Source: a virus
Strand: one strand, 5' to 3'
Length of the DNA: 64,000 nucleotides
Virus record (IMG/VR): IMGVR_UViG_3300030060_007988
Shown here: positions 7,293 through 33,841 of the stretch, piece by piece
Position numbering within the stretch: position 1 is the stretch's first letter
How the letters are laid out: the number at the start of each line of letters is the position of its first letter
The notes under the pieces: generated by a model
Seen by the model: only the letters and a program-made list of their open reading frames with translations
Database searches by the model: none
What the model was told of the DNA's origin: nothing
Position numbers and translations under genes: made by a program

Positions 7293-8624
7293 ATGTTTAC
7301 AGAAAAAGAAAAATTACCAATTTTATTAGATATAGTTAATAAAGAACCTATAGTTGCATTACCAATAATGTCTGATTATAGCAAACACTATATGAATAGT
7401 GATATTAGTTTTCTATACATATTTACAGTAAAATCAAATAAGGAATTTATTATTTCATATAATCATTATGATATAGAAAGTAACATAACATATTCTAAAG
7501 ACCTACTAAAAAACTGCCCACAAATACATGTTTGGGATAGTAAAATATTTAGAAACCTATATATAAATGATAATGTAATTGATCATGGATTGATTAATTA
7601 TTTAGATATTAACTCCCAGCTAGACGCACAAAATTATGAAACACATACTCATAAATTTTATCAAAATGAATATTGGAAATATGGAAATATAAATAACATA
7701 ATACCAATAATGAAACATCTAGAAACATGTAGGCACATGACTAAATTGATCACCAATAAAATATCAATAGATTTACCAGAATCGTTTACACCATACAATG
7801 ATGATGTTATTAGAGTATATTCTCAAATTGAAAAATCAGGTTTATGTATTAATACTAATGAATTTTTAGAATCATTTGGTAAATATTCAAAAAAACATAT
7901 AAAAAACAATACTGTATTTACTCAATATAATATGTATACAACTACAGGCCGACCAAGTAATAGTCATGGTGGAGTAAACTATGCTGCACTTAATAAAGAT
8001 GATGGTTCACGTAAATGTTTTATTAGTAGACATGAAAATGGACGTTTAGTTGAATTTGATTTTGATTCATATCACTTAAGATTGATAGCAACAATAATAA
8101 ATGAAAAATTACCTGATTCTTCCATTCATAAATACTTTGGAAAAATGTATTTCAATAAAGAAAATCTATCGGCAGCTGAATATGTAAAGTCTAAAGAAAT
8201 ATCATTCAAAATATTGTATGGCGGTGTACCTGATGAATATAAACATATACCATTTTTTTCAAAAATAGATAGATTTATTAATGATTTATATAATGATATG
8301 CTAACATTTGGTTATGTAAAAACAGCATTGCTAAATAGAAAAATGATTGGTAAAAATTATGAATCATTAACCAGAACTAAACTATTTAATTATTACATAC
8401 AGGCAATGGAAACTGAAAGTAATGTAATAATGTTCGATAAAATACTAAACCTATTAAATGGTAAAAACACCAACCTAGTTTTAACCACATATGATTCTTT
8501 ACTTTTTGATTTTGATATTAATGAAGGAAAAAAATTACTAAATGATATAGAGTTATGTTTTGACTATCCTGTTAAAATGTCCGTTGGCAAAAATTATGAT
8601 TCAATGAAAATAGTGAATAAATAA
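7293..8624 (+). CDS. Short family-A DNA polymerase-like protein (no recognisable exonuclease motifs)
   Basis: TTTGRPSN, motif A EFDFDSYHLR, motif B KEISFKILYG, motif C TTYDSLLFD. Confidence 0.8.
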   Translation: MFTEKEKLPILLDIVNKEPIVALPIMSDYSKHYMNSDISFLYIFTVKSNKEFIISYNHYDIESNITYSKDLLKNCPQIHVWDSKIFRNLYINDNVIDHGLINYLDINSQLDAQNYETHTHKFYQNEYWKYGNINNIIPIMKHLETCRHMTKLITNKISIDLPESFTPYNDDVIRVYSQIEKSGLCINTNEFLESFGKYSKKHIKNNTVFTQYNMYTTTGRPSNSHGGVNYAALNKDDGSRKCFISRHENGRLVEFDFDSYHLRLIATIINEKLPDSSIHKYFGKMYFNKENLSAAEYVKSKEISFKILYGGVPDEYKHIPFFSKIDRFINDLYNDMLTFGYVKTALLNRKMIGKNYESLTRTKLFNYYIQAMETESNVIMFDKILNLLNGKNTNLVLTTYDSLLFDFDINEGKKLLNDIELCFDYPVKMSVGKNYDSMKIVNK

Positions 8625-11110: not shown

Positions 11111-11455
11111 ATGAAAGACTTATTATTAGCCTTAGCCTTTTATACTATAGGGCATACATTAATCTGGTTTCAAACCAACGGACAATTTCTTTGGAAATGG
11201 TTTGAAAAAAATCCATTTTTACTTTCAATAACTTTAGGAACAATTATATCATATACATTTATACTTGGTACAAAACACATAGTACTGTATTCAGGTGGAT
11301 TGTTATGGCCTGGAAGACTATTAGGATTTGGAATTGGAATAACCGCATTTACAATATTAACGTTAATATATTTTGGTGAAGGACTTTCATCAAAAACTAT
11401 AACATCACTAATATTGGCAATAGGTTTGGTTTGTATACAGATTTTTTGGAAATAA
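11111..11455 (+). CDS. Small 4-TM membrane protein (DMT/SMR-like topology)
   Basis: Four hydrophobic segments and a FGEGLS loop before the last helix. Confidence 0.65.
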   Translation: MKDLLLALAFYTIGHTLIWFQTNGQFLWKWFEKNPFLLSITLGTIISYTFILGTKHIVLYSGGLLWPGRLLGFGIGITAFTILTLIYFGEGLSSKTITSLILAIGLVCIQIFWK

Positions 11456-11456
11456 T

Positions 11457-11485
11457 TTTTTTATATGCGAAAATTTTGTTATATT
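11457..11485 (+). promoter_or_regulatory. Promoter motif TTTTTTAT-N13-GTTATATT, copy 3
   Basis: Exact match; positioned to drive Hc1-SSB-recA-ncRNA. Confidence 0.75.
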
Positions 11486-11515
11486 GAGTATTAATAAATA
11501 ATAAAGGAGAAAAAC

Positions 11516-11689
11516 ATGGATAGTGTTGAAAAAATTCAAGAAGTATTGGATAACATACAACCTGATGTTACCAAGTTTAGCGGAGGTAATAAATCTGCTG
11601 GAACAAGAATTAGAAAAGCAATGCAGGAAATTAAAAAATTGGCTCAAGACGTAAGAGTTGAGGTCCAAGATAAAAAAAATAGTAAATAA
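11516..11689 (+). CDS. Histone H1-like (Hc1 family) small DNA-binding protein, 57 aa (absent from the ORF track)
   Basis: MDSVEKIQEVLDNIQPDVTKFSGGNKSAGTRIRKAMQEIKKLAQDVRVEVQDKKNSK; GNKSAGTRxRK signature; AAGGAG SD. Confidence 0.85.
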   Translation: MDSVEKIQEVLDNIQPDVTKFSGGNKSAGTRIRKAMQEIKKLAQDVRVEVQDKKNSK

Positions 11690-11708
11690 TAATTAAAAGG
11701 AGTAAATA

Positions 11709-12479
11709 ATGGCATTAGATTTAGAAGCTATAAGACAAAAGTTAAATAACTTACAAAGTCAAACTGGAAAACAGGATAACTTATGGAAACCTGAACCAGG
11801 AAAAAATCAAATTAGAATTGTACCATATCAGTATAATAAAGATAACCCGTTTATTGAATTATACTTTCATTATGATTTAGGTAAGAAAAACTACTTATCA
11901 CCTATTACATTTGGTGAAGCTGACCCAGCAGTTGAATTTGCTGAAAAGTTAAAAGCAACTGGAAATCAAGATGATTGGAAAATGGCAAGAAAACTAGAAC
12001 CAAAAATGAGATGTTATGTACCTGTATTAATTAGAGGTAAAGAATCAGAAGGTGTTAAATTTTGGGGATTTGGTAAAACTGTATATCAAGAACTGTTAAG
12101 TTTCATAGCAGACCCAGATTATGGTGACATTACTGATTTAAGATCAGGTAGAGATGTTGTAGTTGAGTATCTTACACCAGAAGAAGCAGGTAATAGTTTT
12201 GGTAAAACAACAATTAGAGTTAAGCCAAATCAAACAGCTGCAACAGAAGATAAAAATGTTGCTGAAAAAGTTGTAAGTGGTCAAAAAGATATAAACGAAA
12301 TCTTTAGAAAAGTTTCATACGATGATTTAAAAGCTGCATTGGAAACTTGGTTAGATCCAGAAAGTGAATCAGGAGAAAGTCCTTCACCAACTGGAAATGG
12401 TCAAACTACACAAGCAGATACAACAGTTAAAAAGACTGATGATATATCGGCAGCATTTGATAATTTGTTTGATAACTAG
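11709..12479 (+). CDS. Single-stranded DNA-binding protein (T4 gp32-like)
   Basis: LWKPEPGKNQIRIVP, VKFWGFGKTVYQEL, DYGDITD..GRD; acidic/aromatic tail AFDNLFDN. Confidence 0.8.
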   Translation: MALDLEAIRQKLNNLQSQTGKQDNLWKPEPGKNQIRIVPYQYNKDNPFIELYFHYDLGKKNYLSPITFGEADPAVEFAEKLKATGNQDDWKMARKLEPKMRCYVPVLIRGKESEGVKFWGFGKTVYQELLSFIADPDYGDITDLRSGRDVVVEYLTPEEAGNSFGKTTIRVKPNQTAATEDKNVAEKVVSGQKDINEIFRKVSYDDLKAALETWLDPESESGESPSPTGNGQTTQADTTVKKTDDISAAFDNLFDN

Positions 12480-19439: not shown

Positions 19440-20372
19440 ATGAAAAACTATTTAATTGGGTCAAATAATTATGCACTACTTGCTTCTTATCTTTTAAGTG
19501 ACATAACAATTATACCAACAAGTAAATTTGAAGCAAACAATGTAGAACCTGAATTCTTACCTAACACTCCGGAAATAATTAATATTGTAAATTCATTAGG
19601 ACTAAAATATAAGGTAAAAATATTAAATGCATTTTTTGATGATAGAGGCAAAATATCAACAGTACCTTCAGATTCATTTAAAAATGTATATGCACTATCA
19701 ACTAGGGGAAAACTTGCAGTTGAAAATAGTTACTTTGAAAAATTTAAAGGTAGCATGGAATATGTTTCAATAAAAAATAAAGGACCATTTGAAAGTTTCT
19801 ACTTACTATTTAAAGAGATTAAGAAAAATATTGTTCTTAAGGATATGATAGATTCTGAAATAGATTCTATTGGTGTTAAAGATAGTAACATAATATTATC
19901 AGATGGAAATATACTTGAATATAAAAGACTAATATGGACTGGTGATATAAAAAATTTAGATAAAAAACTTAATTTATTTACAAAAAAAATATATGTATAT
20001 GTATGTGAATACAATAACGAGGCTGATAAAAAAATGTCAAACTTTTTTAGCTTTGGATATTCAATAGGTAAAACATACTTTAGAACTATTTATTTAAAAG
20101 ACAAAATTGAATATCATTGTATGAAGAGAACATTTAAAGATGAAATTGATGGCAATAAAATAATAAACAGTTTTAATACAGAACAAATAATTGATAATTT
20201 AAGAAAAACAAACATGTATAATGTAGATCTAATAAGTATGTACTCACAGTGGAATTTAGGTTATTCAATTAGTCAAGCATACCGTGATTGTAAAGAATTG
20301 TATGAATATTACAATTTAGATAAAAAAATAGGTGATAATATTTTTAAATCCCAACAAAATTTGTTATATTAG
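19440..20372 (+). CDS. Hypothetical protein, possibly a degenerate FAD-dependent oxidoreductase/mutase fold
   Basis: N-terminal YLIGSNNYALLASYLL resembles a decayed Rossmann motif; DGNILEYKRLIWTG segment. Confidence 0.4.
   Translation: MKNYLIGSNNYALLASYLLSDITIIPTSKFEANNVEPEFLPNTPEIINIVNSLGLKYKVKILNAFFDDRGKISTVPSDSFKNVYALSTRGKLAVENSYFEKFKGSMEYVSIKNKGPFESFYLLFKEIKKNIVLKDMIDSEIDSIGVKDSNIILSDGNILEYKRLIWTGDIKNLDKKLNLFTKKIYVYVCEYNNEADKKMSNFFSFGYSIGKTYFRTIYLKDKIEYHCMKRTFKDEIDGNKIINSFNTEQIIDNLRKTNMYNVDLISMYSQWNLGYSISQAYRDCKELYEYYNLDKKIGDNIFKSQQNLLY
20342..20370 (+). promoter_or_regulatory. Promoter motif copy 5 (TTTTAAAT-N13-GTTATATT) heading the modification operon
   Basis: Same 13-nt spacing; two substitutions in the upstream box. 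Confidence 0.65.
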
Positions 20373-20398: not shown

Positions 20399-21241
20399 AT
20401 GAATATTTACAAAAATCTTAATGAAGCATTCTGGCATGAACTTAATAGTATATCCATAATGGGTAAAAATGTAGAAAGCCGTGGTACAAAACAAAAAGAA
20501 ATACTTTTTAGAAATTTTACCATAGAAGATCCAACAGACTTAGATATAGTTTGGCCAAGTAGAAAATTTAATACAACATATACACTTGCTGAATTTCTTT
20601 GGTATCTGTCAAGAAATCCCAACTCAGTTAACATTGGAAAATTTGCAAGAATTTGGTTAAACATAAAGGATAATGAAGATAATGTAGAATCAAATTATGG
20701 CTGTTATGTATTTGGTAGTCAATGGGACTGGGCAGTAAAAGAATTGATAGATGACAAGGATAGTCGACGTGCAACATTTGTAATTGGTCAACCATATCAC
20801 AAAACAAAAAATCCTAATGATATACCATGTACACAATATCTTCAATTTTTTATACGTGACAATAAACTTCATATGGGAACATACATGAGAAGTAATGATA
20901 TTGTATTTGGTATGTCAAATGATATTTTTATATTTTGTTTGTTTCAACAATTAATGTTTAATGAATTAAAACAACATTACACTGATTTACAAATAGGTAC
21001 ATACCATCACCATGCGGGAAGTTTACATCTATATGAAACTCATTATGATATGGCTGCACAAATATTGGAGGGTGATAGGGCATCTGAGGATTATGAATTC
21101 TCAAGCAATATATTTACTCTTAAACCAAATGTAACATTAGATTACATACAACAAAATAATCTATATTTACCAGCCAAAGATATGACTAAAGAAGAAATTG
21201 GTGAATATGCAAAAACAACTGGTGAAAAATTATTTATATGA
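20399..21241 (+). CDS. dCMP hydroxymethylase-like thymidylate-synthase-family enzyme (T4 gp42-like)
   Basis: DSRRA, catalytic PCT, MRSNDIVFGMSND with Asp at the specificity position (E. coli ThyA N177 / T4 gp42 D179), GSLHLY. Confidence 0.85.
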   Translation: MNIYKNLNEAFWHELNSISIMGKNVESRGTKQKEILFRNFTIEDPTDLDIVWPSRKFNTTYTLAEFLWYLSRNPNSVNIGKFARIWLNIKDNEDNVESNYGCYVFGSQWDWAVKELIDDKDSRRATFVIGQPYHKTKNPNDIPCTQYLQFFIRDNKLHMGTYMRSNDIVFGMSNDIFIFCLFQQLMFNELKQHYTDLQIGTYHHHAGSLHLYETHYDMAAQILEGDRASEDYEFSSNIFTLKPNVTLDYIQQNNLYLPAKDMTKEEIGEYAKTTGEKLFI

Positions 21242-21519
21242 AAAAGAAATCAATACTAAATAAGGCTGATGAAATAATTAATAATCGTTCAGAAGAAAAA
21301 GAAAGAATGTACGGTCCTTTTAGTGAAGGAATGGAAAGGGCTGCAAAAATAGCAAGTGGCATGACAGGTAAAGACTTCCAAGCTGAAGATATGTATGCTG
21401 CATTGGTTGCACTAAAACTATCAAGACATTCATATAATTATCGTGAAGATAATTTATTAGATTGTGTTGCATATTTAGGTGCATTAGATAATTACATAAA
21501 GGAGAATAAGAATGGCTAA
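21238..21519 (+). CDS. DUF6378-like protein
   Basis: IL..A.EII..R....YG, LVALKLSR, DNLLDCVAY. Confidence 0.7.
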   Translation: MKKKSILNKADEIINNRSEEKERMYGPFSEGMERAAKIASGMTGKDFQAEDMYAALVALKLSRHSYNYREDNLLDCVAYLGALDNYIKENKNG

Positions 21520-21979
21520 TTTTGATAATGAATGTAAAGATTTAAATGTAAAAGATTCATATAGTGAATCAACAACTCATTTGCACGATATAATGAGTCA
21601 CCAAAAGTATATGCAAGAATATACTTATAAGTTAGATTTTTCAGAAATGACTATTGCTGAAATTATGAAGTTTTGGCATGCAAACAATCATGCAATTATT
21701 GATGAAATACATGAAATGACAGATGCTCTAGGTGGTATCAAGGATGGCTCAGGTAGTGCAGTTTGGAAATACTGGAAACAGGATCATAAGAAATACGAGA
21801 GTATGAAAATATCAGATCTATCTGAAGGAGATAGAAAAGAGTTATATATGGAATTTGTTGATGTACTACATTTCCTAATGAACTATGCAGCATCAATAGG
21901 ATTGGATGCAAAAACAGTATATAACTATTATTTTGCAAAAGCTGAGGAAAATAAGAAAAGACAACACCGAGGATATTAA
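21512..21979 (+). CDS. dCTPase/dUTPase (T4 gp56-like all-alpha NTP pyrophosphatase)
   Basis: NEC..L, IDEIHE, SAVWKYWK, ELYMEFVDVLHF and RQHRGY parallel T4 gp56 (SAVWKKWK, FELVDIFHF, RQDNGY). Confidence 0.88.
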   Translation: MANFDNECKDLNVKDSYSESTTHLHDIMSHQKYMQEYTYKLDFSEMTIAEIMKFWHANNHAIIDEIHEMTDALGGIKDGSGSAVWKYWKQDHKKYESMKISDLSEGDRKELYMEFVDVLHFLMNYAASIGLDAKTVYNYYFAKAEENKKRQHRGY

Positions 21980-22395
21980 TGGACAAACAAAGTAGATACG
22001 ACATGGCATATATGAAAATGGCTAAAGAATGGAGTCAACTATCATTTGCAAATAGAATGAAGGTTGGTGCAATTATAGTCAAAGACCAGCAAATTATTAG
22101 TGATGGTTTCAATGGTATGCCAAGTGGTATGGATAATTGTTGTGAAGGAGATGATGGACAAACAAAAAAGGAAGTTCTACATGCAGAGGCAAATGCAATT
22201 CTTAAATGTGCAAAACATAGGGGAGGTTGTGCGGGTTCAACTTTATATATTACATTAAGTCCATGCCAAGATTGTGCAAAACTAATTCACCAAGCAGGAA
22301 TTAAAAGAGTTGTTTATAGTGATATCTATAGACATGGAAATGGATTAGAATTCCTAAATAGTTGCGGAATAAAAACTGAAAAAATTAATCTATGA
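21979..22395 (+). CDS. cd: dCMP deaminase
   Basis: VGAIIV, GFNGMPSG, HAEANA, SPCQDC. Confidence 0.93.
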   Translation: MDKQSRYDMAYMKMAKEWSQLSFANRMKVGAIIVKDQQIISDGFNGMPSGMDNCCEGDDGQTKKEVLHAEANAILKCAKHRGGCAGSTLYITLSPCQDCAKLIHQAGIKRVVYSDIYRHGNGLEFLNSCGIKTEKINL

Positions 22396-22446
22396 AAACA
22401 CCTGCTTTGAACTTTTTAACTTGTATTTATATGAGAGGTAAAAAAT

Positions 22447-22722
22447 ATGGTATATGCAAATAAAAAAATAGATTGGAAAATAAATATGGTTACGGTCGGC
22501 AATTGTGATGAATGCAAAAGAGTACATCCATTAGTTTCAAAATTCTGTGCAAAAAATAACATTAAGTTAAACATAATTCCTAATGCGGAATATGATCCAA
22601 AGAAATGGAATTTTGTAAATCAAATATGGCCATTTTTTATTTTGGAAAAAAATGGTGAAAGTGTTTTAAAAATTAATGGATATAGAGGTGAATTTAAAAA
22701 AATTGAAAGGATGATATTATGA
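22447..22722 (+). CDS. Thioredoxin/glutaredoxin-like protein
   Basis: CDEC motif and a cis-Pro-like WPFFIL segment. Confidence 0.65.
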   Translation: MVYANKKIDWKINMVTVGNCDECKRVHPLVSKFCAKNNIKLNIIPNAEYDPKKWNFVNQIWPFFILEKNGESVLKINGYRGEFKKIERMIL

Positions 22723-24014
22723 AAATAGGAATAGGTAAAATGGGGAAATCAATGTTATTTTCTCAAAGTAAATGGGGATTGATTGGTGGCGATGCTGCAC
22801 CATCAATACTTTACACATCACTGGCATCAATAAATCCAAACATTACATTTTACATTGTAGGACGTTCTGACTTTTCAAAATTAACCAATGATGAAAAATC
22901 AAGACTATTTCCAAACAATAATGTTATAGACTGTTGGTCAGAAGCTGATATGAAAAATGCACATAGCAAATTTCATGCACCACTTGAATATGTAAACCAA
23001 CACAACATAAAATTGGATGCATTTGTTATGATGTCAGGAATGTGTAGTAGTGTTAATATGAATGATATGATTTGGAGTGTAAAGAATCCAGGAAAATATT
23101 CAAAGACATTATATCAATTCCATCACTATGCAGGTCCAATAATTCACTTTCTAAACATGACGCAAGTTCCAATGTTTACAATTAGTGAAGATCCTAGACA
23201 CATAAGACTTAATGCAAAAGATTTATTCAATAGGGAAAAATTTTGTTTAAGTCAAGAAAACTCAGTACAGAAAGTAAAGCATATAGTTAATTATGATGAT
23301 CAATCAACTGTTGAGTATGATATACCTGTTAAGTATGGTCAAACTGAAAAGATATTTTTAATTGGTGAAACTAAAAGGAATACACTAAAACTAAAAAAGG
23401 ATATTCCAATAACAATGTTTATGAATAGTCACACAATGAAATCAAAAGAAACCAGAAAACCGTTTATAGATGAATACATACACAGTAACTTTCCAGATTC
23501 AAAGGTTTATGGTAAATGGCCAAAGGAACTACTAGAAAGTGATAATAGATATGAAGCTATTAGAATGGGGGATATCATGGATGAAGTATTAAGAACAAAA
23601 TATACATTAGTGGTATCAATAAAACCAGGGTTTGTAACTTGTAAACCTTGGGAAATGATAAATTTTGGAATCATACCATTTTTACATCCAACATATGACA
23701 CTAACAATCTACTAGGATTTCCAGAATGGCTACATGTAAAAGATGCAAATGATTTTAAAAATAAGGTTGAATTTTTAGAAAACAATCCTGATAGGTATAT
23801 GAAGTTACGTGGATTACTACAAGATATGTTAGAACCAGAATTTTATGATGGAACATATATGAACAATTTAATTATGAGTAATGTATGTAATATGATAGGT
23901 AAAGAATATGAAAATGCTAATCAAGGAACATCAGTAAAAATGTCATCATTTTCAGAAAAAGAAAGTGTACAGAAAAAATTAAAAAAAGATAAAAAACAAA
24001 TGGAGTTATTTTAA
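22719..24014 (+). CDS. DNA glycosyltransferase, T4 beta-glucosyltransferase-like (GT-B fold)
   Basis: MKIGIGKMG vs BGT MKIAIINMG; ISEDPR vs FTDIR (catalytic Asp); FVTCKPWEM...YDT vs FITLRVWET...FDT; C-terminal QMELF. Confidence 0.75.
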   Translation: MKIGIGKMGKSMLFSQSKWGLIGGDAAPSILYTSLASINPNITFYIVGRSDFSKLTNDEKSRLFPNNNVIDCWSEADMKNAHSKFHAPLEYVNQHNIKLDAFVMMSGMCSSVNMNDMIWSVKNPGKYSKTLYQFHHYAGPIIHFLNMTQVPMFTISEDPRHIRLNAKDLFNREKFCLSQENSVQKVKHIVNYDDQSTVEYDIPVKYGQTEKIFLIGETKRNTLKLKKDIPITMFMNSHTMKSKETRKPFIDEYIHSNFPDSKVYGKWPKELLESDNRYEAIRMGDIMDEVLRTKYTLVVSIKPGFVTCKPWEMINFGIIPFLHPTYDTNNLLGFPEWLHVKDANDFKNKVEFLENNPDRYMKLRGLLQDMLEPEFYDGTYMNNLIMSNVCNMIGKEYENANQGTSVKMSSFSEKESVQKKLKKDKKQMELF

Positions 24015-24379
24015 TGAATGATACAAGACCTAAAACAATATTTTGTGACATAGACGGAACATTGGTTGAACATATGAAACCTAGTGAAGCAACTATGCCT
24101 TTTTCATGTATGAAGCCTTTACCAGGTGCAGTTGATAAATTATTAGAATGGGAAAGAAAAGGATATAACATTATACTTACAACTGGTAGAAGAAATTGTG
24201 CAAGAAAACAAACAGAAGAACAATTAGCAAATGCAGGTATAGTTTATGATCAATTGATTATGGGATTTGGTGGTGGAAAGAGATATCTAATCAATGATAG
24301 AAAACCTAATGGTGAAGAAGACTATGCAGTTGCAATAAACATAGAAAGAAATACAGGAATTGGAAATATAGAATTATGA
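24014..24379 (+). CDS. HAD-family phosphatase
   Basis: IFCDIDGTL (DxD), LTTGR, INDR. Confidence 0.85.
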   Translation: MNDTRPKTIFCDIDGTLVEHMKPSEATMPFSCMKPLPGAVDKLLEWERKGYNIILTTGRRNCARKQTEEQLANAGIVYDQLIMGFGGGKRYLINDRKPNGEEDYAVAINIERNTGIGNIEL

Positions 24380-24927
24380 ATTACGCCGAATTAAAAACAA
24401 CAGTGATGTCAGAAATAAATGATGTATTAACATCAGTAGATGAAAAATCGTTAGACATAATGTGTGACATAATACAATCATCAAATAAAATAGTTGTGGC
24501 TGGTGCTGGTAGAATGGGGTATTCAATAAAATGCTTTGGTATGAGATTAGGTCATATGGGATACCAAGCTTGGACTTTAGGAGATTCAACTGTACCTCAA
24601 ATAGGAAAAGGTGATTTATTAATAGTTGCATCAGGAAGTGGTGAAACTGAAACCATCTACAATATAGTTTTAAAAGCAAAACAGAATCGTGCAAAGGTGA
24701 TATTAATAACAACTAAAAAGGAATCAAGAATGGCTTCTTCATCAGACCATTTAGTAATTATGAATGCCGTTTCTGCCTTTACAGGTGATAGAGGAACTAT
24801 TCAGCCTATGAAAACATATGTAGAGCAGTCATTACTTATCTTATTGGATATTATGGCACTAAAACTTATGCAAGAGTCTGGTGAGACAAATTTCACAATG
24901 TCAAAAAGGCATTCACTTTTAGAGTAG
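24376..24927 (+). CDS. SIS-domain sugar-phosphate isomerase (HxlB/PHI-like)
   Basis: VAGAGRMG...FGMRLGHMG...GDLLIVASGSGET...HSLLE. Confidence 0.85.
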   Translation: MNYAELKTTVMSEINDVLTSVDEKSLDIMCDIIQSSNKIVVAGAGRMGYSIKCFGMRLGHMGYQAWTLGDSTVPQIGKGDLLIVASGSGETETIYNIVLKAKQNRAKVILITTKKESRMASSSDHLVIMNAVSAFTGDRGTIQPMKTYVEQSLLILLDIMALKLMQESGETNFTMSKRHSLLE

Positions 24928-24932
24928 AAAAT

Positions 24933-25631
24933 ATGAAAAACAAATTTATGATAGGTGCATCTTTAATATGTGGAAATCAAGCAGATTTAAAAGGTGACGT
25001 TGAATTACTAAAAAAATCAGGTCAAGTTGACTTTTTACATGTTGATACTATGGATGGATTGTTTGTACCTAGATATGGAATGTATCCTGAACAAGTAAAA
25101 CACATTAAAGAAATATGCGACATACCTGTAAATGTACATATGATGGTATCAAATCCTGAACCATTCATTGACTGGTTTGCAGAATCAGGTGCTGATATAA
25201 TTACAATTCATGTGGAACCTAATCAGCAATTAGGAAGAACTATCGCAATGATAAAAAAGGCAGGATGTAAAGTTGGACTTGCATTTAATATACATTCACA
25301 ATATCATATCATTGAAAGTTTTATAGACGATATAAGTTTAGTTATGTTAATGGCAATAAATCCAGGAATACTAGGACAAGGTTGTTGGCCAGGAATCTAC
25401 AATAAGATTGATAGATTTAGAAAGTATTTGGACAACAACGGAAGAAGAGATGTTATAATTGAGATAGACGGAGGTGTAACACCAGAAACAGCTCCTAAAT
25501 TAATAAAGGCAGGTGCAAATATGTTAACTTGTGGAACTGGAACAATATATAGACCTAAAGAGGCACCATTAGATATTAAGATTGGTCAATTTAAAAATAA
25601 AGTAAATAGGGAATTAGAATATGCAGTATAA
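24933..25631 (+). CDS. rpe: Ribulose-phosphate 3-epimerase family (Rpe/AlsE)
   Basis: LHVDTMDGLFVP, VHMMV, IHVE, MAINPG, IEIDGGV. Confidence 0.88.
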   Translation: MKNKFMIGASLICGNQADLKGDVELLKKSGQVDFLHVDTMDGLFVPRYGMYPEQVKHIKEICDIPVNVHMMVSNPEPFIDWFAESGADIITIHVEPNQQLGRTIAMIKKAGCKVGLAFNIHSQYHIIESFIDDISLVMLMAINPGILGQGCWPGIYNKIDRFRKYLDNNGRRDVIIEIDGGVTPETAPKLIKAGANMLTCGTGTIYRPKEAPLDIKIGQFKNKVNRELEYAV

Positions 25632-27249
25632 AGTATTATTAACAACTTCAGGTATAGGTAGTAGATTAGGTGAAATAACCGACTATACAAATAAAGGATT
25701 AGTCAAGGTTGGTAAAAAACCAGCAATATCTTACATTATTGAATCATATCCAAAAACAATGGAATTTGTTGTAACCATAGGATACTTTGCAGACCATGTA
25801 AGACAATTTCTAAACATTGCATATCCTGATAGAAAATTTACGTTTGTGGAAATTGATAACTATTCAGGTGAAGGAAGTAGTTTAGGATATTCTCAATTAT
25901 GTGCAAAGGAACATTTACAATGCCCATTTATATATAATGCATGCGATACTATAGTACTTGATACAATACCTGAACCTGATAGGGATTGGGTAGGTGGATT
26001 CAAACAAAAAGGATCCAGCCAATATGACAGCTATTGTGTTACAAATGGTGATGTTAAAGAGTTTTATACTAAAGGAAATATAGATTCTGATTATGTATAT
26101 ATTGGACTAATAGGTGTTAATGATTATGAAAACTATTGGGAAACAATGGAAAAACTATATAATGAAGATCATAATATGAGATCATTATCAGATCTATATT
26201 GTGTAAAGAATCAACTAAAAGAAGGCAAAAAAATATATCACAAACAATTTATGACATGGTATGACATAGGAAATGTTGAGTCTTTAAATAAAGCAAGGAC
26301 TGATATTCCAGACTCATTTAATATTTTAGATAAGTTAGAAGAATCTATTTATTTATTTGATGACCATGTTATTAAGTTTTTTGCAAATGAAAAAATGTCA
26401 ACACAAAGAGTTGATAGAGCATCTATCCTTGATGGTATGGTACCAAAGATTGTTGCTAAATCCCCAAACTTTTATAGATATGAATATGCCGAAGGTGATT
26501 TATATTCAAAGGTTGCAAATCCAATTACATTTATTAAACTATTAGATTGGGCAAAGGAAAATTTATGGAAAGAAAATGATGTTGTTAGTGAAACAGATTT
26601 TAGAAAAGCATGTATAGATTTTTACTATGAAAAAACAATATCAAGAATAAATAAGTTTTATGATTCAACTCGTAACCTTGATAAAGTAGAAACGATTAAT
26701 GGTTTGCAAACACCAACAATAAATGAAATGCTTAAAGCCATAAATAGTGATTGGTTATGTAAGCCAAAACAAACAGGCTTTCATGGTGACTTTATATTAG
26801 ATAATATAATTTTAGGAGAAGAAGGATTTACTTTACTTGATTGGAGACAAAATTTTGGAGGTCTTATTGAGTGTGGTGATATGTATTATGACTTGGCAAA
26901 ACTTAATCACAACTTAGTAGTTAATCATGAAATAGTAAACAATAATCAATTTAAAGTTACAAAATCAAAAGATAATATTATAGTTGATATACATAGACGT
27001 CAATCTCTAATTGAATGTCAACAGGTTTATCATAAATGGATTGTTGATAACGGATATGATTTAAGTAAAGTAAAAGTTTTAACATCTTTGATTTGGTTAA
27101 ATATGTCCGCACTTCACCATCATCCATTTGATGAATTTTTATATTATTATGGAAAATACACATTATTAAAAACATTAGGAGAATTAGAAAATGAATACGT
27201 TCCAACCTACAAACTTCAGTCCTCTAACAAAGTCTCAAACATACTTTAA
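25621..27249 (+). CDS. Sugar nucleotidyltransferase fused to an APH/choline-kinase-like phosphotransferase
   Basis: N-terminal TTSGIGSRL...NKGL...WYDIG; C-terminal FHGDFILDN...LLDWR...YYDLAKL. Confidence 0.85.
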   Translation: MQYKVLLTTSGIGSRLGEITDYTNKGLVKVGKKPAISYIIESYPKTMEFVVTIGYFADHVRQFLNIAYPDRKFTFVEIDNYSGEGSSLGYSQLCAKEHLQCPFIYNACDTIVLDTIPEPDRDWVGGFKQKGSSQYDSYCVTNGDVKEFYTKGNIDSDYVYIGLIGVNDYENYWETMEKLYNEDHNMRSLSDLYCVKNQLKEGKKIYHKQFMTWYDIGNVESLNKARTDIPDSFNILDKLEESIYLFDDHVIKFFANEKMSTQRVDRASILDGMVPKIVAKSPNFYRYEYAEGDLYSKVANPITFIKLLDWAKENLWKENDVVSETDFRKACIDFYYEKTISRINKFYDSTRNLDKVETINGLQTPTINEMLKAINSDWLCKPKQTGFHGDFILDNIILGEEGFTLLDWRQNFGGLIECGDMYYDLAKLNHNLVVNHEIVNNNQFKVTKSKDNIIVDIHRRQSLIECQQVYHKWIVDNGYDLSKVKVLTSLIWLNMSALHHHPFDEFLYYYGKYTLLKTLGELENEYVPTYKLQSSNKVSNIL

Positions 27250-27553
27250 GACTTGGGGCGAGAATAAGTCTGAATTATTAAAAGATCTATTCACAGACGA
27301 TATATTATTACAAGACTGGGATAATAAAGCAACTGGTATAGATGAAGTATTAGAAGCAAATGCAGCAATATTTGCCGGTGTAACAGATATTAAAGCAGTT
27401 CCTTTAATGATAAGAGTTGTTGATAACATAGCCTATTGTGAACTAGAAGTATTAGTAAAGGCAGAAGGTACTATAAGTAAAATTTTAGTATTGGATATAA
27501 TAACTTTTGATGAGGAAGGAAAAATTAAATCAATAAGAGCATATAAAGGGTAA
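27191..27553 (+). CDS. SnoaL/NTF2-like protein
   Basis: LFTDDILLQDWD...VLDIITFDEEGKIKSIRAY. Confidence 0.75.
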   Translation: MNTFQPTNFSPLTKSQTYFKTWGENKSELLKDLFTDDILLQDWDNKATGIDEVLEANAAIFAGVTDIKAVPLMIRVVDNIAYCELEVLVKAEGTISKILVLDIITFDEEGKIKSIRAYKG

Positions 27554-27555
27554 AC

Positions 27556-28803
27556 ATGAAACACGCAACAATAATTCCTTTAATAGGTGGCATGACACTT
27601 GCAAATAAAAAGATAACTGGTAAAGATCCAGAAGTTATATTATCATACTCACCGTTTAAGGCAAACGATAGTCACATAACTAAATATCTTCCAAAAGTAC
27701 CATATAAAGTATTAGATGATATGGGAGATGATGAAAAAAATATATTAATTGAAAAACTAAAAGGAAAACTTGATTTTGTTTCAACTGTTTGTCCTTGTGC
27801 AGGATTGGCAGGTACAAATACTGCACCTAAAACAAGTAGTAAAGGTCGTGGAGCACATGCAGAACAAAATCAATGGATGTATAAAAGTGCAAAGCTAATT
27901 TTAGAAGATATAAAACCAAAAGTATTTTGGGGAGAAAATGCGCCAGGCCTATTTACTAAAATGGGTGTAGAGGTTGCAGATAATCTTAGAAAAATTGGTG
28001 AAGATGCAGGATATAGCTTTTCAATGATTAAGACAAATACAGAGCTACATGGAATACCTCAGAGAAGAATTAGAACATTTTATTTTTTCTGGGATAGTCC
28101 TTCCCCACCACTCTTTAATTGGGTTAAGAGAGATACTCCAAAACTATTAGACTATCTTGGTGAAATACCAAAAGATGCAACACAATTTGATATGAGAATA
28201 TGGATGGATCCTGTTACTGTTAAATATCCACCATATAAATTTTTATTAGATAAATTAGGTTTGACTCATGAACAAATGGTTAAAAAAGTTGGAAAGGGAA
28301 CTGTATTTAGATATATGCAAGACAATGATTTATTTGATGAGTGCCTAGACTGGCTAAAAGTACACGCACCAAATGATGGTCCTAGTGGAGGAAAACCAGG
28401 AACAAATACTTATATTGATATCATTAATCATATAAAAAATAAATTGGCTGATGGGAAAGGATATTGGGATAGTTCACCGCATTTATTTCACGAATCATTT
28501 AATGCAGTTATTGGAAGAAATATGTTTGATGGTGTACATCCAATTGAAAATAGATATATGAGTGTTAGAGAATATATTCATATGATGGGAATGCCTCATG
28601 ACTTTGAACTTGACAATATTAAAAACATAAATCATATTGCACAAAATGTTCCTGTAGGTACGGCATCAGATATGACCCAACATGTTGTTGATTATATAAA
28701 CGGAAAGTCATCATTATCAGATTCAAAGTTTTTAAAACAAGATAATGTTTCTAGAAAAACTGATGTAATTACAAATGAAAAACAACTTGAACTTTTTTCA
28801 TAA
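27556..28803 (+). CDS. C5-cytosine DNA methyltransferase-like protein with atypical motif I
   Basis: Motif I IPLIGG (normally FxGxGG), IV CPCAG, VI ENAP, VIII PQRRIRTF, X AQNVP; C-terminal QLELFS. Confidence 0.8.
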   Translation: MKHATIIPLIGGMTLANKKITGKDPEVILSYSPFKANDSHITKYLPKVPYKVLDDMGDDEKNILIEKLKGKLDFVSTVCPCAGLAGTNTAPKTSSKGRGAHAEQNQWMYKSAKLILEDIKPKVFWGENAPGLFTKMGVEVADNLRKIGEDAGYSFSMIKTNTELHGIPQRRIRTFYFFWDSPSPPLFNWVKRDTPKLLDYLGEIPKDATQFDMRIWMDPVTVKYPPYKFLLDKLGLTHEQMVKKVGKGTVFRYMQDNDLFDECLDWLKVHAPNDGPSGGKPGTNTYIDIINHIKNKLADGKGYWDSSPHLFHESFNAVIGRNMFDGVHPIENRYMSVREYIHMMGMPHDFELDNIKNINHIAQNVPVGTASDMTQHVVDYINGKSSLSDSKFLKQDNVSRKTDVITNEKQLELFS

Positions 28804-29093: not shown

Positions 29094-31580
29094 ATGAAAA
29101 ACAATTTTAAACTATCAAGAATTACAAGTAAATTTGACAAAGGTTATTTTAACATATATCAATTTGGTTATGATGAAAACAATAAATTTGTAACTAAAGT
29201 TGATAAAATAAGAGACTATTTTTACTACTCCGCAAATAACATTGATGATATAATGGAAACACCTAACATGGATTTTGGGGATACACAGTTCTATGATAGC
29301 TTTAATGGTGAAAAAGTAAATAAAGTTTTCTATAATTCCATAAAGATAAAAAATAAAATTGTTAGGGAAAAAGCCCCAAGAACATATCATGGAGATGTAA
29401 GTCCAGAGTTTAAACATATACTCGATAAAGGTTTAGAATGGACTAATAATAGACATATTATTTATTATGATATTGAGACATGGGTAGACTTAGAAAATCC
29501 AACAGACAATAAACCAGAAAATGCCAAACAACCAGTAACATCAATACAGTGTTATTCAACCGATAAGAAACAATACTTTGTATTTGCATGGCACCCAGAA
29601 AAAACAAAAGACCTATCTGAGCCTTCAATGAAAACTGAAGGAAACACAACTTATGTAATGTGTAAAGATGAAGAAGATGTAATTATGGGATTCATAAATT
29701 TACTATCAATTAGTCATTGCGATATTTTAACGGGGTGGTACTGTTCAGGTTATGATATGCCATATATTATTAATAGATGTAAAAAACTAGGACTACCTTA
29801 TGAAGAGATATCTCCAATAAAAGATGTATTTATGAAAAGGCGTGGTGAATATTGGAGAATCAACATACGAGGACTAGATCATGTTGATATGATGGAGGCT
29901 TTACAAGATATGGGTTACAATCTTCCTAATTGGAAATTGGCAACGGCATCGAAGGAAATACTTGGTACAGGTGAAATGGAAAAGTTAACAGAAGTCACTT
30001 GGAGGGATTGGATTGATAACTTTGACGGATTTATTAAGTATGGTATACGTGATGTACAAATACTGAAAGAAATTTCTGAAAAGATACAGATGTTTGAATT
30101 ATACACAACATTACAGCAAATTAGTAATATAGAAATATTAACACATGCATTTTTTAAATCAGTTGTAGTTGATAACTATATACTTAAAGAATTTCATGGC
30201 CAACTTGCGTTTCCAACTAGAAGAACAGGAAAAAGACAAAATTATGCCGGAGCAATAGTGTTCAATCCAACAGAACCCGGCCGCCATAAAGATGTAACTG
30301 TAATGGACTATACTTCACTATATCCTACAAGCATTATGGCATTTAACATTAGTCCAGAAACATTTATATGTTCTAAGCAACAATGTGATTCTGCAGGATT
30401 TAAAATAGATGAAGTCATTGATAAATTAAAATCAGAAAATACTCCTTACATAGATACTGGGGAAGATAGTACTTTATTTGGTGATAGGTATCTTTTTTAT
30501 GGCCATGATGAAAAGGAAGGACTATTACCTTATGTATTAAGAAAGCTTTTTCTAAAAAGAGTTGAAATAAATAAAAACTTATCGGAAGGTAAATATAAAG
30601 GCGATGAAAAAATTGCAATGGAAAAAAGGCAATGGACCTATAAGATTATCCTAAACAGTGCTTATGGTGCAATGGGATTCCCATTCTTTAGATTATACAA
30701 ACCTGAATGTGCAGATGCAATTACATACTTTGCAAGACAGGCATTAAAGTTTGCAACCGTTAAGTTTAATAGTGATCATAAAGTTTTATATGGTGATACT
30801 GATAGTATATTTGTAAAGTCAAATGGAAAGTCTGAAAATGAAATGAAAGGTGCATTGGTTGAATTTAATCATCAATTAAGAAATGAATTCATAGCAAAAT
30901 ACAATACAGGACTACCAGATGAATATATGTTAATGGACCTTAAGTTTGAATATGATTTAGAGTACATATATTTTGGAAACTCAAAAAAGAGATACTATGG
31001 AATAGTAAGGGATACAGGTAAAAAGTATATTAGAGGTATGAATATTATTCGTAAAGATGCACCAACATTTTTAAAAAAGGCATTAAATGTTGTAACTGAA
31101 ATGGCTGTAAGAGACAAACTAACATTGGATCATTTAGTAAAGTTAAGACAGAAAATAACAACTATTGACTATAAGGATATTGGAATATCAAAAAAGTTTA
31201 CCAAAAAGTTTAATCAGTATACAAAAAATAAGCCTCAACATATAAAGGCATCAATGTGGGCCAATGATAAACTAGGAACATCAATTACACATACAGATAC
31301 TCCATATCTATTTTATATAAAAAGTAAATGTGAAGATGATCTTAAACCTAAAGAAAGACAAACTGCAATATGTTTAAACGAAGAAGATTTGCATCTAATA
31401 GATAAGCATAATGAAATATTTGAAATTGATTATGATACATACTATAAGAAGCAAGTAACTGAACAATTGAAAGAATTTAACTTAATACCAAACGTAAAAA
31501 AATTACTAGAAAATGAAAAAAATAACAATGAATTTAATATTTATTCTGGTAAAGAGGTTACAGGATCACATATAAATTAG
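29094..31580 (+). CDS. polB: Family-B DNA polymerase with 3'-5' exonuclease
   Basis: DIET, YDMPY, YGIRD; DYTSLYP, KIILNSAYG, YGDTDS, KKRY. Confidence 0.96.
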   Translation: MKNNFKLSRITSKFDKGYFNIYQFGYDENNKFVTKVDKIRDYFYYSANNIDDIMETPNMDFGDTQFYDSFNGEKVNKVFYNSIKIKNKIVREKAPRTYHGDVSPEFKHILDKGLEWTNNRHIIYYDIETWVDLENPTDNKPENAKQPVTSIQCYSTDKKQYFVFAWHPEKTKDLSEPSMKTEGNTTYVMCKDEEDVIMGFINLLSISHCDILTGWYCSGYDMPYIINRCKKLGLPYEEISPIKDVFMKRRGEYWRINIRGLDHVDMMEALQDMGYNLPNWKLATASKEILGTGEMEKLTEVTWRDWIDNFDGFIKYGIRDVQILKEISEKIQMFELYTTLQQISNIEILTHAFFKSVVVDNYILKEFHGQLAFPTRRTGKRQNYAGAIVFNPTEPGRHKDVTVMDYTSLYPTSIMAFNISPETFICSKQQCDSAGFKIDEVIDKLKSENTPYIDTGEDSTLFGDRYLFYGHDEKEGLLPYVLRKLFLKRVEINKNLSEGKYKGDEKIAMEKRQWTYKIILNSAYGAMGFPFFRLYKPECADAITYFARQALKFATVKFNSDHKVLYGDTDSIFVKSNGKSENEMKGALVEFNHQLRNEFIAKYNTGLPDEYMLMDLKFEYDLEYIYFGNSKKRYYGIVRDTGKKYIRGMNIIRKDAPTFLKKALNVVTEMAVRDKLTLDHLVKLRQKITTIDYKDIGISKKFTKKFNQYTKNKPQHIKASMWANDKLGTSITHTDTPYLFYIKSKCEDDLKPKERQTAICLNEEDLHLIDKHNEIFEIDYDTYYKKQVTEQLKEFNLIPNVKKLLENEKNNNEFNIYSGKEVTGSHIN

Positions 31581-31582
31581 TT

Positions 31583-31879
31583 ATGAAAAATTACTATCAA
31601 CAATATTTAGACAATCATTCAAATCCAAAATGTAGACTATTACATTTTATTGGACAATGGTTTACAATATTTTTTACAATTGGTGTAATTTATTTTCAGT
31701 ACTGGTTATTGGTGCCTTTTATTCCTTTAGTAGTATATCCTTTTGCAATAAGTGGCCATTACTTTTTTGGCAATAAAGGTGAAAAACCATCATTTACTAA
31801 AATGGGATTTTTACAAGCAAAGCTATCCGATTGGAAAATGTTTTTTGATATACTAAGAGGAAAGATAACAATATGGTAA
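31583..31879 (+). CDS. DUF962/Mpo1-like membrane protein
   Basis: YL..HS...CRLLHFIG...GHYFF...KP. Confidence 0.75.
   Translation: MKNYYQQYLDNHSNPKCRLLHFIGQWFTIFFTIGVIYFQYWLLVPFIPLVVYPFAISGHYFFGNKGEKPSFTKMGFLQAKLSDWKMFFDILRGKITIW

Positions 31880-31899: not shown

Positions 31900-33840
<1,941 letters not shown>

Positions 33841-33841
<1 letters not shown>

Follow-up and report, generated by a model that had tools for sequence, protein, structure and literature searches.

We have analyzed a stretch of 64,000 nucleotides (the window) from the virus record IMGVR_UViG_3300030060_007988 of IMG/VR, in which five adjacent genes at positions 24014-27553 form what we read, with moderate confidence, as the sugar-supply arm of a phage operon for cytosine hypermodification (~20399-28803). 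This arm would provide a nucleoside diphosphate (NDP)-pentofuranose for transfer onto 5-hydroxymethylcytosine (5hmC). The cassette is located in the middle of a close-packed run of genes (20399-28803) whose open reading frames (ORFs) overlap or are at most 5 nt apart, with the sole exception of a 51-nt gap before 22447. The five cassette ORFs, all on the + strand, overlap each other or lie within 5 nt, and code for the following products:

24014..24379, + strand: small capless HAD phosphatase, 121 aa (several HAD-superfamily Pfam models)
24376..24927, + strand: SIS sugar-phosphate isomerase of the HxlB/PHI family, cassette-specific subfamily, 183 aa (PF01380, 1e-12)
24933..25631, + strand: protein of the ribulose-phosphate 3-epimerase (Rpe) family, cassette-specific subfamily, 232 aa (PF00834, 1.1e-53)
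25621..27249, + strand: fused nucleotidyltransferase/kinase (NTK), AfhE-like, 542 aa, with an N-terminal sugar-1-phosphate nucleotidyltransferase and a C-terminal kinase of the APH/choline-kinase fold (weak Pfam APH and NTP_transferase matches)
27191..27553, + strand: SnoaL/NTF2-like protein, 120 aa (PF12680, SnoaL_2, 9e-8)

These ORF limits and family matches agree with an earlier reading of this DNA made from the letters alone (the sequence-only reading), which had recognized the five genes. Its gene set stands but the order given in its heading does not, the actual order being phosphatase, isomerase, epimerase, transferase/kinase and SnoaL. It had also proposed a dedicated route to an NDP-sugar with the logic of ADP-heptose synthesis, and this has gained support, since such logic has been shown biochemically for AfhE and AfhF and the NTK aligns with AfhE over both domains. 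What it missed was where the sugar would go, the cassette being part of an operon for 5hmC DNA hypermodification that also encodes a transferase similar to the T4 beta-glucosyltransferase (BGT). The genes present, their families, their active-site signatures, the synteny and the homology to AfhE are observations; every substrate and product discussed below is our inference.

The family profile of the NTK finds its best PDB match in LicC (1jyk, 6.7e-8). The motif 'TTSGIGSRLG' at its N-terminus, already pointed out in the sequence-only reading as TTSGIGSR, is conserved across the family, and G11, G13, (R15), the stretch H388-G-D-F-I-x-D-N395 and D407-W-R are invariant or nearly so in 16 family members. 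When this family was compared by hhalign with AfhE-type proteins (DLP1, Thanatos-2, CIP9, a Klebsiella phage and JS98) the match covered both domains (95%, E 3.8e-8, 465 columns), with an identity between NTK and AfhE of only ~22%, which makes the NTK a remote homologue of AfhE over its full length. In the Afh route an arabinose-5-phosphate (Ara5P) isomerase acts on ribulose-5-phosphate (Ru5P), the kinase of AfhE makes arabinose-1,5-bisphosphate, the HAD phosphatase AfhF removes the 5-phosphate and the N-terminal domain of AfhE produces uridine diphosphate (UDP)-arabinofuranose; the biochemistry of AfhE and AfhF was shown for phage HY126 in 2026 (PMC13326640). RB69-like phages use this UDP-arabinofuranose to arabinosylate their cytosine (PMC13326640; He et al., 2026; Mahler et al., 2025).

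In the pathway that we propose for the window, the Rpe-type epimerase would interconvert Ru5P and xylulose-5-phosphate, and the SIS enzyme of the HxlB family would turn one pentulose-5-phosphate into an aldopentose-5-phosphate. The C-terminal kinase of the NTK would then phosphorylate the anomeric hydroxyl to give a pentofuranose-1,5-bisphosphate, the small HAD would take off the 5-phosphate, and the N-terminal domain of the NTK would join the sugar-1-phosphate and a nucleoside triphosphate into the NDP-pentofuranose, from which the BGT-like enzyme of the GT-B fold would attach the sugar to DNA at the hydroxymethyl group of 5hmC. The general logic is likely ketose-phosphate to aldose-phosphate to sugar-1,omega-bisphosphate to sugar-1-phosphate to NDP-sugar to 5hmC in DNA. 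As for the base arm, taking T4 as the model, a thymidylate synthase (TS) homologue of the gp42 type would make 5hm-dCMP, a MazG-like enzyme would clear dCTP, and 5hmC would enter the DNA at replication. A sugar coat on the phage DNA would most likely guard it against host nucleases. In phage DNA, sugar-decorated cytosines are a defense against restriction enzymes and CRISPR nucleases, and they also make the DNA harder to sequence and to engineer.

The transferase gene lies just upstream of the cassette and a methyltransferase-like gene just downstream:

22719..24014, + strand: GT-B transferase of the T4 BGT type, 431 aa (AlphaFold2 model, Foldseek)
27556..28803, + strand: C5-cytosine-methyltransferase-like (C5-MTase-like) protein (PF00145, 5e-14)

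The former overlaps the HAD gene by 1 nt and is the only glycosyltransferase in the gene run. It has 65 detectable relatives, nearly all of them unnamed metagenomic sequences. Its AlphaFold2 model, built on 24 relatives, had a predicted local distance difference test (pLDDT) score of 88, and ranks 1 to 5 of the Foldseek matches in the PDB were all T4 BGT (best E 2.6e-9). Against a BFVD entry named 'DNA beta-glucosyltransferase' the TM score was 0.79; the sequence profile of the family reaches BGT (1bgt) at an E of 0.03 only. On the basis of the model the protein is predicted to be a DNA (5hmC) glycosyltransferase. The surroundings of its relatives are of the same kind, as among 80 viral loci that carry one there was a TS homologue nearby in 53 and a dCMP deaminase in 44, and in 79 of them a C5-MTase-like gene came after the transferase homologue. 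The C5-MTase-like family keeps the PC, ENA, QxRxR and QNVP motifs in 46 members, and relatives occur in phages of the cyanophage S-TIM5 group and in Pseudoalteromonas phage XG4. Besides, the C-terminal tails are KQMELF in the transferase (23997-24014) and KQLELFS in the C5-MTase-like protein (28783-28803), and the relatives of both proteins mostly end in (S/T)LE(D/E)FF-like sequences. These endings resemble the tail of T4 gp43, SLDFLFG, which we take to be a clamp-binding peptide. Both window tails look like clamp-binding motifs and point to tethering of the two enzymes to a sliding clamp.

Isomerase and epimerase genes are missing around many marine relatives of the transferase (loci L178-L254), which have only a small HAD and an NTK-like gene that has diverged strongly (30-70 bits). 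These loci may activate a host sugar-phosphate directly.

The first part of the run, upstream of the transferase, contains the genes of the predicted base arm and two small proteins, in this order:

20399..21241, + strand: TS homologue, predicted dCMP hydroxymethylase (5hm-dCMP synthase) of the T4 gp42 type (PF00303, 1.8e-16)
21238..21519, + strand: DUF6378 protein (PF19905, 1.3e-10), which also adjoins the module in a second phage lineage described below (L177)
21512..21979, + strand: MazG-like NTP pyrophosphohydrolase (phrog_173, 1.5e-15; weak dUTPase_2 match)
21979..22395, + strand: dCMP deaminase (PF00383, 7e-25)
22447..22722, + strand: small CxxC protein (CDEC motif in the translation)

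They are followed by the 431-aa transferase, the five cassette genes and the C5-MTase-like gene, which closes the run. The TS homologue found its best PDB matches in the CMP hydroxymethylase MilA (93 bits) and T4 gp42 (67 bits). We aligned it with E. coli ThyA, T4 gp42 and four 5-hydroxycytosine (5hoC) synthases, which make 5-hydroxy-dCMP (RB69, DLP1, Thanatos-2 and JS98), all taken from database records. Its active-site residues at ThyA positions 80/94/143/146/147/165-169/173/177 are W Y D C T M R S N D G D, all 12 of them identical to those of T4 gp42. Asp143 is common to MilA and gp42, the two structurally characterized hydroxymethylases, and Asp177 is a mark of cytosine specificity. The four 5hoC synthases carry A80, E143, N169 and V173, and the change D169N has been described as the diagnostic signature of 5hoC synthases (PMC13326640, NAR 2026). 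Since the window protein is of the hydroxymethylase type (D143, D169), the base of this phage is predicted to be 5hmC and not 5hoC. We had considered 5hoC as in RB69, a candidate that was ruled out by the presence of Asp169 and the lack of A80, E143 and V173. The other TS homologues linked to a transferase of the window type have D143, C146, D169 and D177 in 29 of 29 cases. Besides, phages with modified cytosine can be recognized, according to published work, by an N177D TS homologue encoded near a dCMP deaminase and a pyrophosphohydrolase (bioRxiv 10.1101/2024.12.05.627091). The MazG-like protein is, by analogy to T4 gp56, a candidate dCTPase. The CxxC protein, possibly thioredoxin/glutaredoxin-like, gave no family match in profile searches.

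The window belongs to an 81-kb IMG/VR record with an estimated completeness of 49%, and the negative results for the record refer to this fragment. It contains only one gene of the TS family. TET/JBP, ThyX, a thymidylate kinase and a gp45-type clamp were not found in it, and two of these searches were also blank in control genomes.

The isomerase is a divergent member of the HxlB family of 6-phospho-3-hexuloisomerases (PHI), as the sequence-only reading had described it. It scores 169.8 bits against TIGR03127 (HxlB, cut-off 160), while the KdsD model gives 27.7 bits and the GmhA model 22-24 bits. Its best PDB match is YckF/HxlB (1m3s, 108 bits, ~40% identity to YckF), compared with 22 bits for an Ara5P isomerase (API) structure, 3etn, and its identity to the API of RB69 is 27% over 118 residues. 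The replacement of RSG by RMG, noted earlier, is real: 'AGAGRMG' is found at the place of 'AGAGRSG' in B. subtilis YckF/HxlB. Actually, when the cassette isomerases were compared with three HxlB proteins encoded next to hxlA, three sites differed (GRSG to GR(V/M)G, VGE to LGD and QPMGSLFEQ to QPM(T/K)T..EQ). The three reference hxlB genes adjoin hxlA, the gene for 3-hexulose-6-phosphate synthase, whereas no hxlA linkage was found at 35 loci with the cassette isomerase, where the neighbors are the Rpe and NTK genes.

The epimerase of the window scores 173 bits against NF004076 (cut-off 165), 177 bits against the equivalog TIGR01163 (below its cut-off of 212.6) and 145 bits against the AlsE model (cut-off 271); in the PDB it matches Rpe 1rpx with 130 bits versus 104 for AlsE 3ct7. 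The cassette Rpe proteins keep the catalytic and metal-binding His and Asp residues (HxD, HMM and DGG motifs) and are nearly canonical by their TIGR01163 score, 207-217 bits (177 for the window member). Their loops have changed from VPN(L/I)T to VPR(Y/F)G and from PGFGGQ to PGI(V/L)G(H/Q), the window member reading VPRYG and PGILGQ. One small genome has no Rpe other than that of the cassette. In the literature we found nothing usable on the SIS-Rpe-NTK combination or on the specificity determinants of Rpe and AlsE.

The small HAD is predicted from its motifs and profile matches to be a sugar-1,omega-bisphosphate omega-phosphatase. The motifs DIDGT (DxDxT), TTGR and LINDRK are invariant in its family, and the family profile matches the phosphatase of PNKP (4xrp, 1.5e-11), the heptose-1,7-bisphosphate phosphatase GmhB (3l8e, 9e-4) and 1xpj (0.009). 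Compared with AfhF (RB69 gp51 / DLP gp81), hhalign gave 19.6% and an E of 1.2e-3 over the DxDxT region only, and BLASTP gave no alignment; both proteins are capless, have ~120-130 aa and match 1xpj weakly. The SnoaL-like protein would be an accessory, and the sequence-only reading had suggested, as a speculation, that it acts as an anomerase. Its relatives were found near NTK genes in only six other loci, of both cassette types described below. The gene was absent from lineage L177 and from the cellular SIS-Rpe-NTK cassettes that we examined.

There are 2546 relatives of the NTK, the nearest (50-58% identity) in Patescibacteria, Bdellovibrionales, metagenome-assembled genomes of gammaproteobacteria, Pedobacter, Chlamydiae and DPANN archaea. 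We fetched 157 NTK loci, and in 35 of them the SIS and Rpe genes are located directly upstream of the NTK, in that order, neither ever appearing without the other. This grouping is more than chance. It is kept even in a Pedobacter genome that also has a housekeeping Rpe. At most other NTK loci there is a sister cassette (L007-L084, L113-L164; L002) with a cupin isomerase similar to phosphomannose isomerase, the NTK, a 314-aa GatZ/KbaZ-like protein and a HAD, which was found in phages, giant-virus bins, bacteria of the candidate phyla radiation (CPR) and DPANN archaea. The 314-aa protein matches 3txv and 2fiq at ~1e-5 by profile, and its model has 2fiq and 3txv as top Foldseek matches. We take its family to include 4-epimerases of fructose-6-phosphate (F6P) and tagatose-6-phosphate. 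In a FastTree phylogeny of 151 NTKs the two cassette types interleave, the largest pure clade having 12 leaves with low support, and therefore NTK phylogeny cannot tell a pentose from a hexose.

Single-sequence queries of viral contigs returned the same phage only, and alignment-based queries were used instead. We found a second, distant phage lineage (L177, transferase 43% identical) that carries DUF6378, the C5-MTase-like gene, the transferase, a HAD-SIS fusion, Rpe, NTK, a dUTPase-like gene and a TS homologue with D177. The presence of the cassette beside DNA-modification genes here too indicates that the link is not unique to one genome. Homologues of both the NTK and the transferase are also found on long metagenomic contigs (65.8, 116 and 161 kb). 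In the L177 fusion (11247-12230) the SIS domain is preceded by an N-terminal HAD of the KdsC type (DVDGILTDG motif), and therefore the HAD subfamily that supplies the phosphatase would vary from one version of the cassette to another. A different setting appears in Synechococcus phage S-SRM01 (L260, 3769-6181), where a KdsD-type SIS, an AfhE-like NTK and a HAD are found among a GDP-mannose dehydratase, a GDP-fucose synthase and several fucosyltransferases, apparently an Afh-like sugar module in a non-DNA glycan context.

Which sugar is made can be narrowed to some extent. The sequence-only reading had put forward two routes, one from xylulose-5-phosphate to lyxose- or xylose-5-phosphate and another from F6P through allulose-6-phosphate to allose- or altrose-6-phosphate; both are still candidates and neither is singled out. 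It had also taken NDP-arabinose as an outcome that would speak against it, and this we have to reverse, as no precedent is closer than the arabinose of the Afh route and no other single product is as likely. A pentofuranose of some kind is in our estimate about evenly balanced against all other outcomes. Within it, D-arabinofuranose, made from Ru5P through Ara5P with Rpe feeding Ru5P, is the leading, if still tentative, candidate, and a lyxo- or xylofuranose derived from xylulose-5-phosphate is unlikely. A hexose of the allose/altrose type is doubtful, and a product of yet another kind, or one not directed to DNA, is somewhat unlikely. The pentose is favored because the cassette Rpe is near-canonical, is the sole Rpe of one small genome, and the window enzyme is nearer to Rpe than to AlsE. 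By our own reasoning, the PHI reaction (F6P to 3-hexulose-6-phosphate) would be the C1-hydroxymethyl homologue of the conversion of Ara5P to Ru5P, the stereochemistry and the distance to the phosphate being equal in both. In addition, GFAT, another SIS enzyme that handles F6P, converts Ru5P to Ara5P (PMC11301363).

Several observations weigh against an NDP-pentofuranose destined for 5hmC, or at least against plain arabinose. By its sequence the isomerase falls outside the KdsD/API type that the Afh phages use, and the HAD is not clearly an orthologue of AfhF. An Rpe that merely feeds Ru5P should often be dispensable, yet it is paired with the isomerase in 35 of 35 cassettes, including that of Pedobacter. 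The obligate presence of Rpe, together with its specific lid substitutions, would therefore favor an epimerase that is on the pathway and a sugar other than arabinose. In the sister cassette the epimerase is necessarily on the pathway, which also speaks against plain arabinose, and this cassette, with its GatZ-like putative 4-epimerase, its cupin and its interleaved NTKs, leaves room for a hexose. As for the base, no dNMP kinase, including one of the gp1 type, was found in the 81-kb record fragment. Finally, a constant C5-MTase-like enzyme has no obvious substrate if all the cytosines are 5hmC, and its presence is unexplained. We consider it rather unlikely that both of two further proposals hold: that an on-pathway Rpe and a repurposed isomerase of the HxlB family make a sugar new to DNA (e.g., D-lyxofuranose, D-xylofuranose or D-allose/altrose), and that the clamp-tailed C5-MTase-like enzyme has a part in another, so far undescribed step on 5hmC at the replication fork. 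If true, this would be a widespread hypermodification system of marine and freshwater phages, distinct from those of T4 and Afh.

The hexose route deserves to be spelled out. The Rpe-like enzyme would be an allulose-6-phosphate 3-epimerase acting on F6P, the SIS enzyme would make allose-6-phosphate or altrose-6-phosphate, and NTK and HAD would proceed via the 1,6-bisphosphate to an NDP-hexose that the transferase would place on 5hmC. The strict pairing of SIS and Rpe where a housekeeping Rpe is present fits this well, and so do the substitutions in the lid and phosphate loop of the cassette Rpe, whose CGTGT motif is nearer to VGTSG of AlsE than to AGSA of Rpe. In the cassette isomerase V/M takes the place of the Ser that HxlB has in its phosphate loop, a change that could shift the register of the substrate, and the GatZ/KbaZ-like and cupin sister cassette offers a parallel logic of epimerizing F6P and then isomerizing it, with NTKs that interleave in the tree. 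However, the epimerase scores Rpe models (173-177 bits) above AlsE (145), with the same ranking in the PDB, and one small genome relies on the cassette Rpe as its sole Rpe. From the chemistry we reason that the enediol of PHI lies 3-4 carbons from the phosphate carbon, which on a hexulose-6-phosphate would give a 2,3- shift and not the 1,2- shift needed for an aldose. To our knowledge no allose-6-phosphate isomerase of the PHI family has been characterized, which also counts against this route, and overall we regard it as unlikely.

The remaining explanations question the use of the sugar or the sugar itself. The NDP-sugar could serve to glycosylate a virion protein or to remodel the host surface, its position by DNA-modification genes being a coincidence of early-gene clustering. 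The glycan-type neighborhoods (SDR enzymes, other transferases) of the NTK cassettes of bacteria, archaea and giant viruses, and the fucosyltransferases around SIS, NTK and HAD in S-SRM01, are what such a role would lead one to expect. But the sole glycosyltransferase of the run is BGT-like, is joined to the HAD gene by overlap and has a tail that looks like a clamp-binding motif; its family is tied in viral loci to TS homologues, dCMP deaminases and the C5-MTase-like gene, and the arrangement recurs in the independent lineage L177. A use outside DNA is thus quite improbable. Phages are known to carry pentose-phosphate genes, and the SIS and Rpe proteins each pass at least one curated family cut-off, so that Rpe and HxlB might simply boost the supply of precursors through the pentose-phosphate or ribulose monophosphate (RuMP) pathways, with no NDP-sugar made. 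This is extremely improbable, as an hxlA partner is missing, the SIS subfamily always stands beside an NTK and in no case has hxlA linkage, in L177 it is fused to a KdsC-type HAD, and the NTK and HAD of the same overlapping run would be left unexplained. The label of canonical RuMP/pentose-phosphate genes was dropped for the missing hxlA and the fixed linkage to NTK.

The window as a whole is DNA of a large uncultured phage, with its genes on one strand and a G+C content of ~30%. It encodes gp32, RecA, a 5'-3' exonuclease, DnaB, a GroEL-like chaperonin, a family-B polymerase and both subunits of ribonucleotide reductase. No isolated phage matched when 10 kb were compared by megablast, and the best identity of the polymerase to those of cultured phages is ~25%. 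Besides the full family-B polymerase (29094-31580) there is a family-A polymerase-like ORF at 7293-8624 (weak PF00476 match over part of the protein). Downstream of the polymerase are a small Mpo1-like protein (PF06127) at 31583-31879 and the GroEL-type chaperonin at 32192-33841. In a scan for promoters and terminators the counts equaled those of shuffled sequence. One more ORF is found at the head of the gene run, its membership in the module being uncertain:

19440..20372, + strand: orf310, 310 aa

It is conserved in the same phage only, and searches of Pfam, NCBIfam and PDB sequences gave no match. Its language-model neighbors include families similar to FAD oxidoreductases, and the N-terminus resembles a degenerate Rossmann motif (YLIGSNNYA), a weak lead.

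Among known systems, the Afh clusters of Straboviridae of the RB69/HY126/DLP3 type also place an NDP-sugar supply beside a TS-homologue base gene and GT-B DNA glycosyltransferases, with a fused nucleotidyltransferase/APH-fold kinase, a small HAD and an SIS isomerase, in a cluster adjoining the DNA polymerase gene. They differ in that the isomerase of the window is PHI/HxlB and not KdsD/API, and in its obligatory Rpe, absent from Afh phages. In the window the TS homologue has the signature of a hydroxymethylase (D143, D169) in place of that of a flavin hydroxylase (E143, N169), and the transferase is like T4 BGT, whereas those of Afh are MshA/BshA-like arabinosyltransferases; the linked C5-MTase-like gene is a further difference. 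With T4 hmC glucosylation (gp42, gp56, gp1, cd and the alpha- and beta-glucosyltransferases) the window shares the hydroxymethylase active site, the pyrophosphohydrolase, the dCMP deaminase, the BGT-like fold and the closeness of the transferase and hydroxymethylase genes, as b-gt and gene 42. However, T4 takes host UDP-glucose, encodes no sugar pathway and has no C5-MTase-like partner.

ADP-heptose synthesis (GmhA, HldE, GmhB) has the same order of steps, with an SIS isomerase, an anomeric kinase, distal dephosphorylation by a HAD and nucleotidyl transfer. The domains of HldE are ribokinase-like and cytidylyltransferase-like, whereas in NTK the kinase has the APH/choline-kinase fold and the transferase is LicC/RmlA-like, the order of the domains is reversed, and the substrate is predicted to be no heptose. 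The HxlB of the RuMP pathway shares with the cassette isomerase a TIGR03127 score above the cut-off, but in the cassette GRSG, VGE and GSLFEQ are altered, there is no adjacent hxlA, and Rpe and NTK are always present. The cellular SIS-Rpe-NTK cassette (CPR/Patescibacteria, Bdellovibrionales, Pedobacter and others) has the same gene order, an NTK 50-58% identical and the same SIS and Rpe substitutions, and differs in its KdsC/YrbI-type phosphatase, sometimes fused to NTK, its glycan-like neighborhoods, and its lack of a TS homologue or a BGT-like transferase.

Phages have captured a cellular cassette of isomerase, epimerase and NTK, otherwise found in CPR bacteria, and combined it with a BGT-like transferase and a hydroxymethylase of the T4 type. 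In the phage setting the cellular cassette becomes more accessible to study, since its product could be read from DNA nucleosides by mass spectrometry. The locus also lends support to NTK and HAD being a general module that could convert any sugar-omega-phosphate into an NDP-sugar without a mutase. Phage-encoded supply of NDP-sugar for cytosine glycosylation was already known; what is new is this combination of enzymes in a DNA-modification setting, which predicts an unseen glycosyl-5hmC. Only two strategies of sugar supply have been documented, the host UDP-glucose used by T4 and the UDP-arabinofuranose of the Afh phages (2025-2026), and the locus described here would be a third arrangement.

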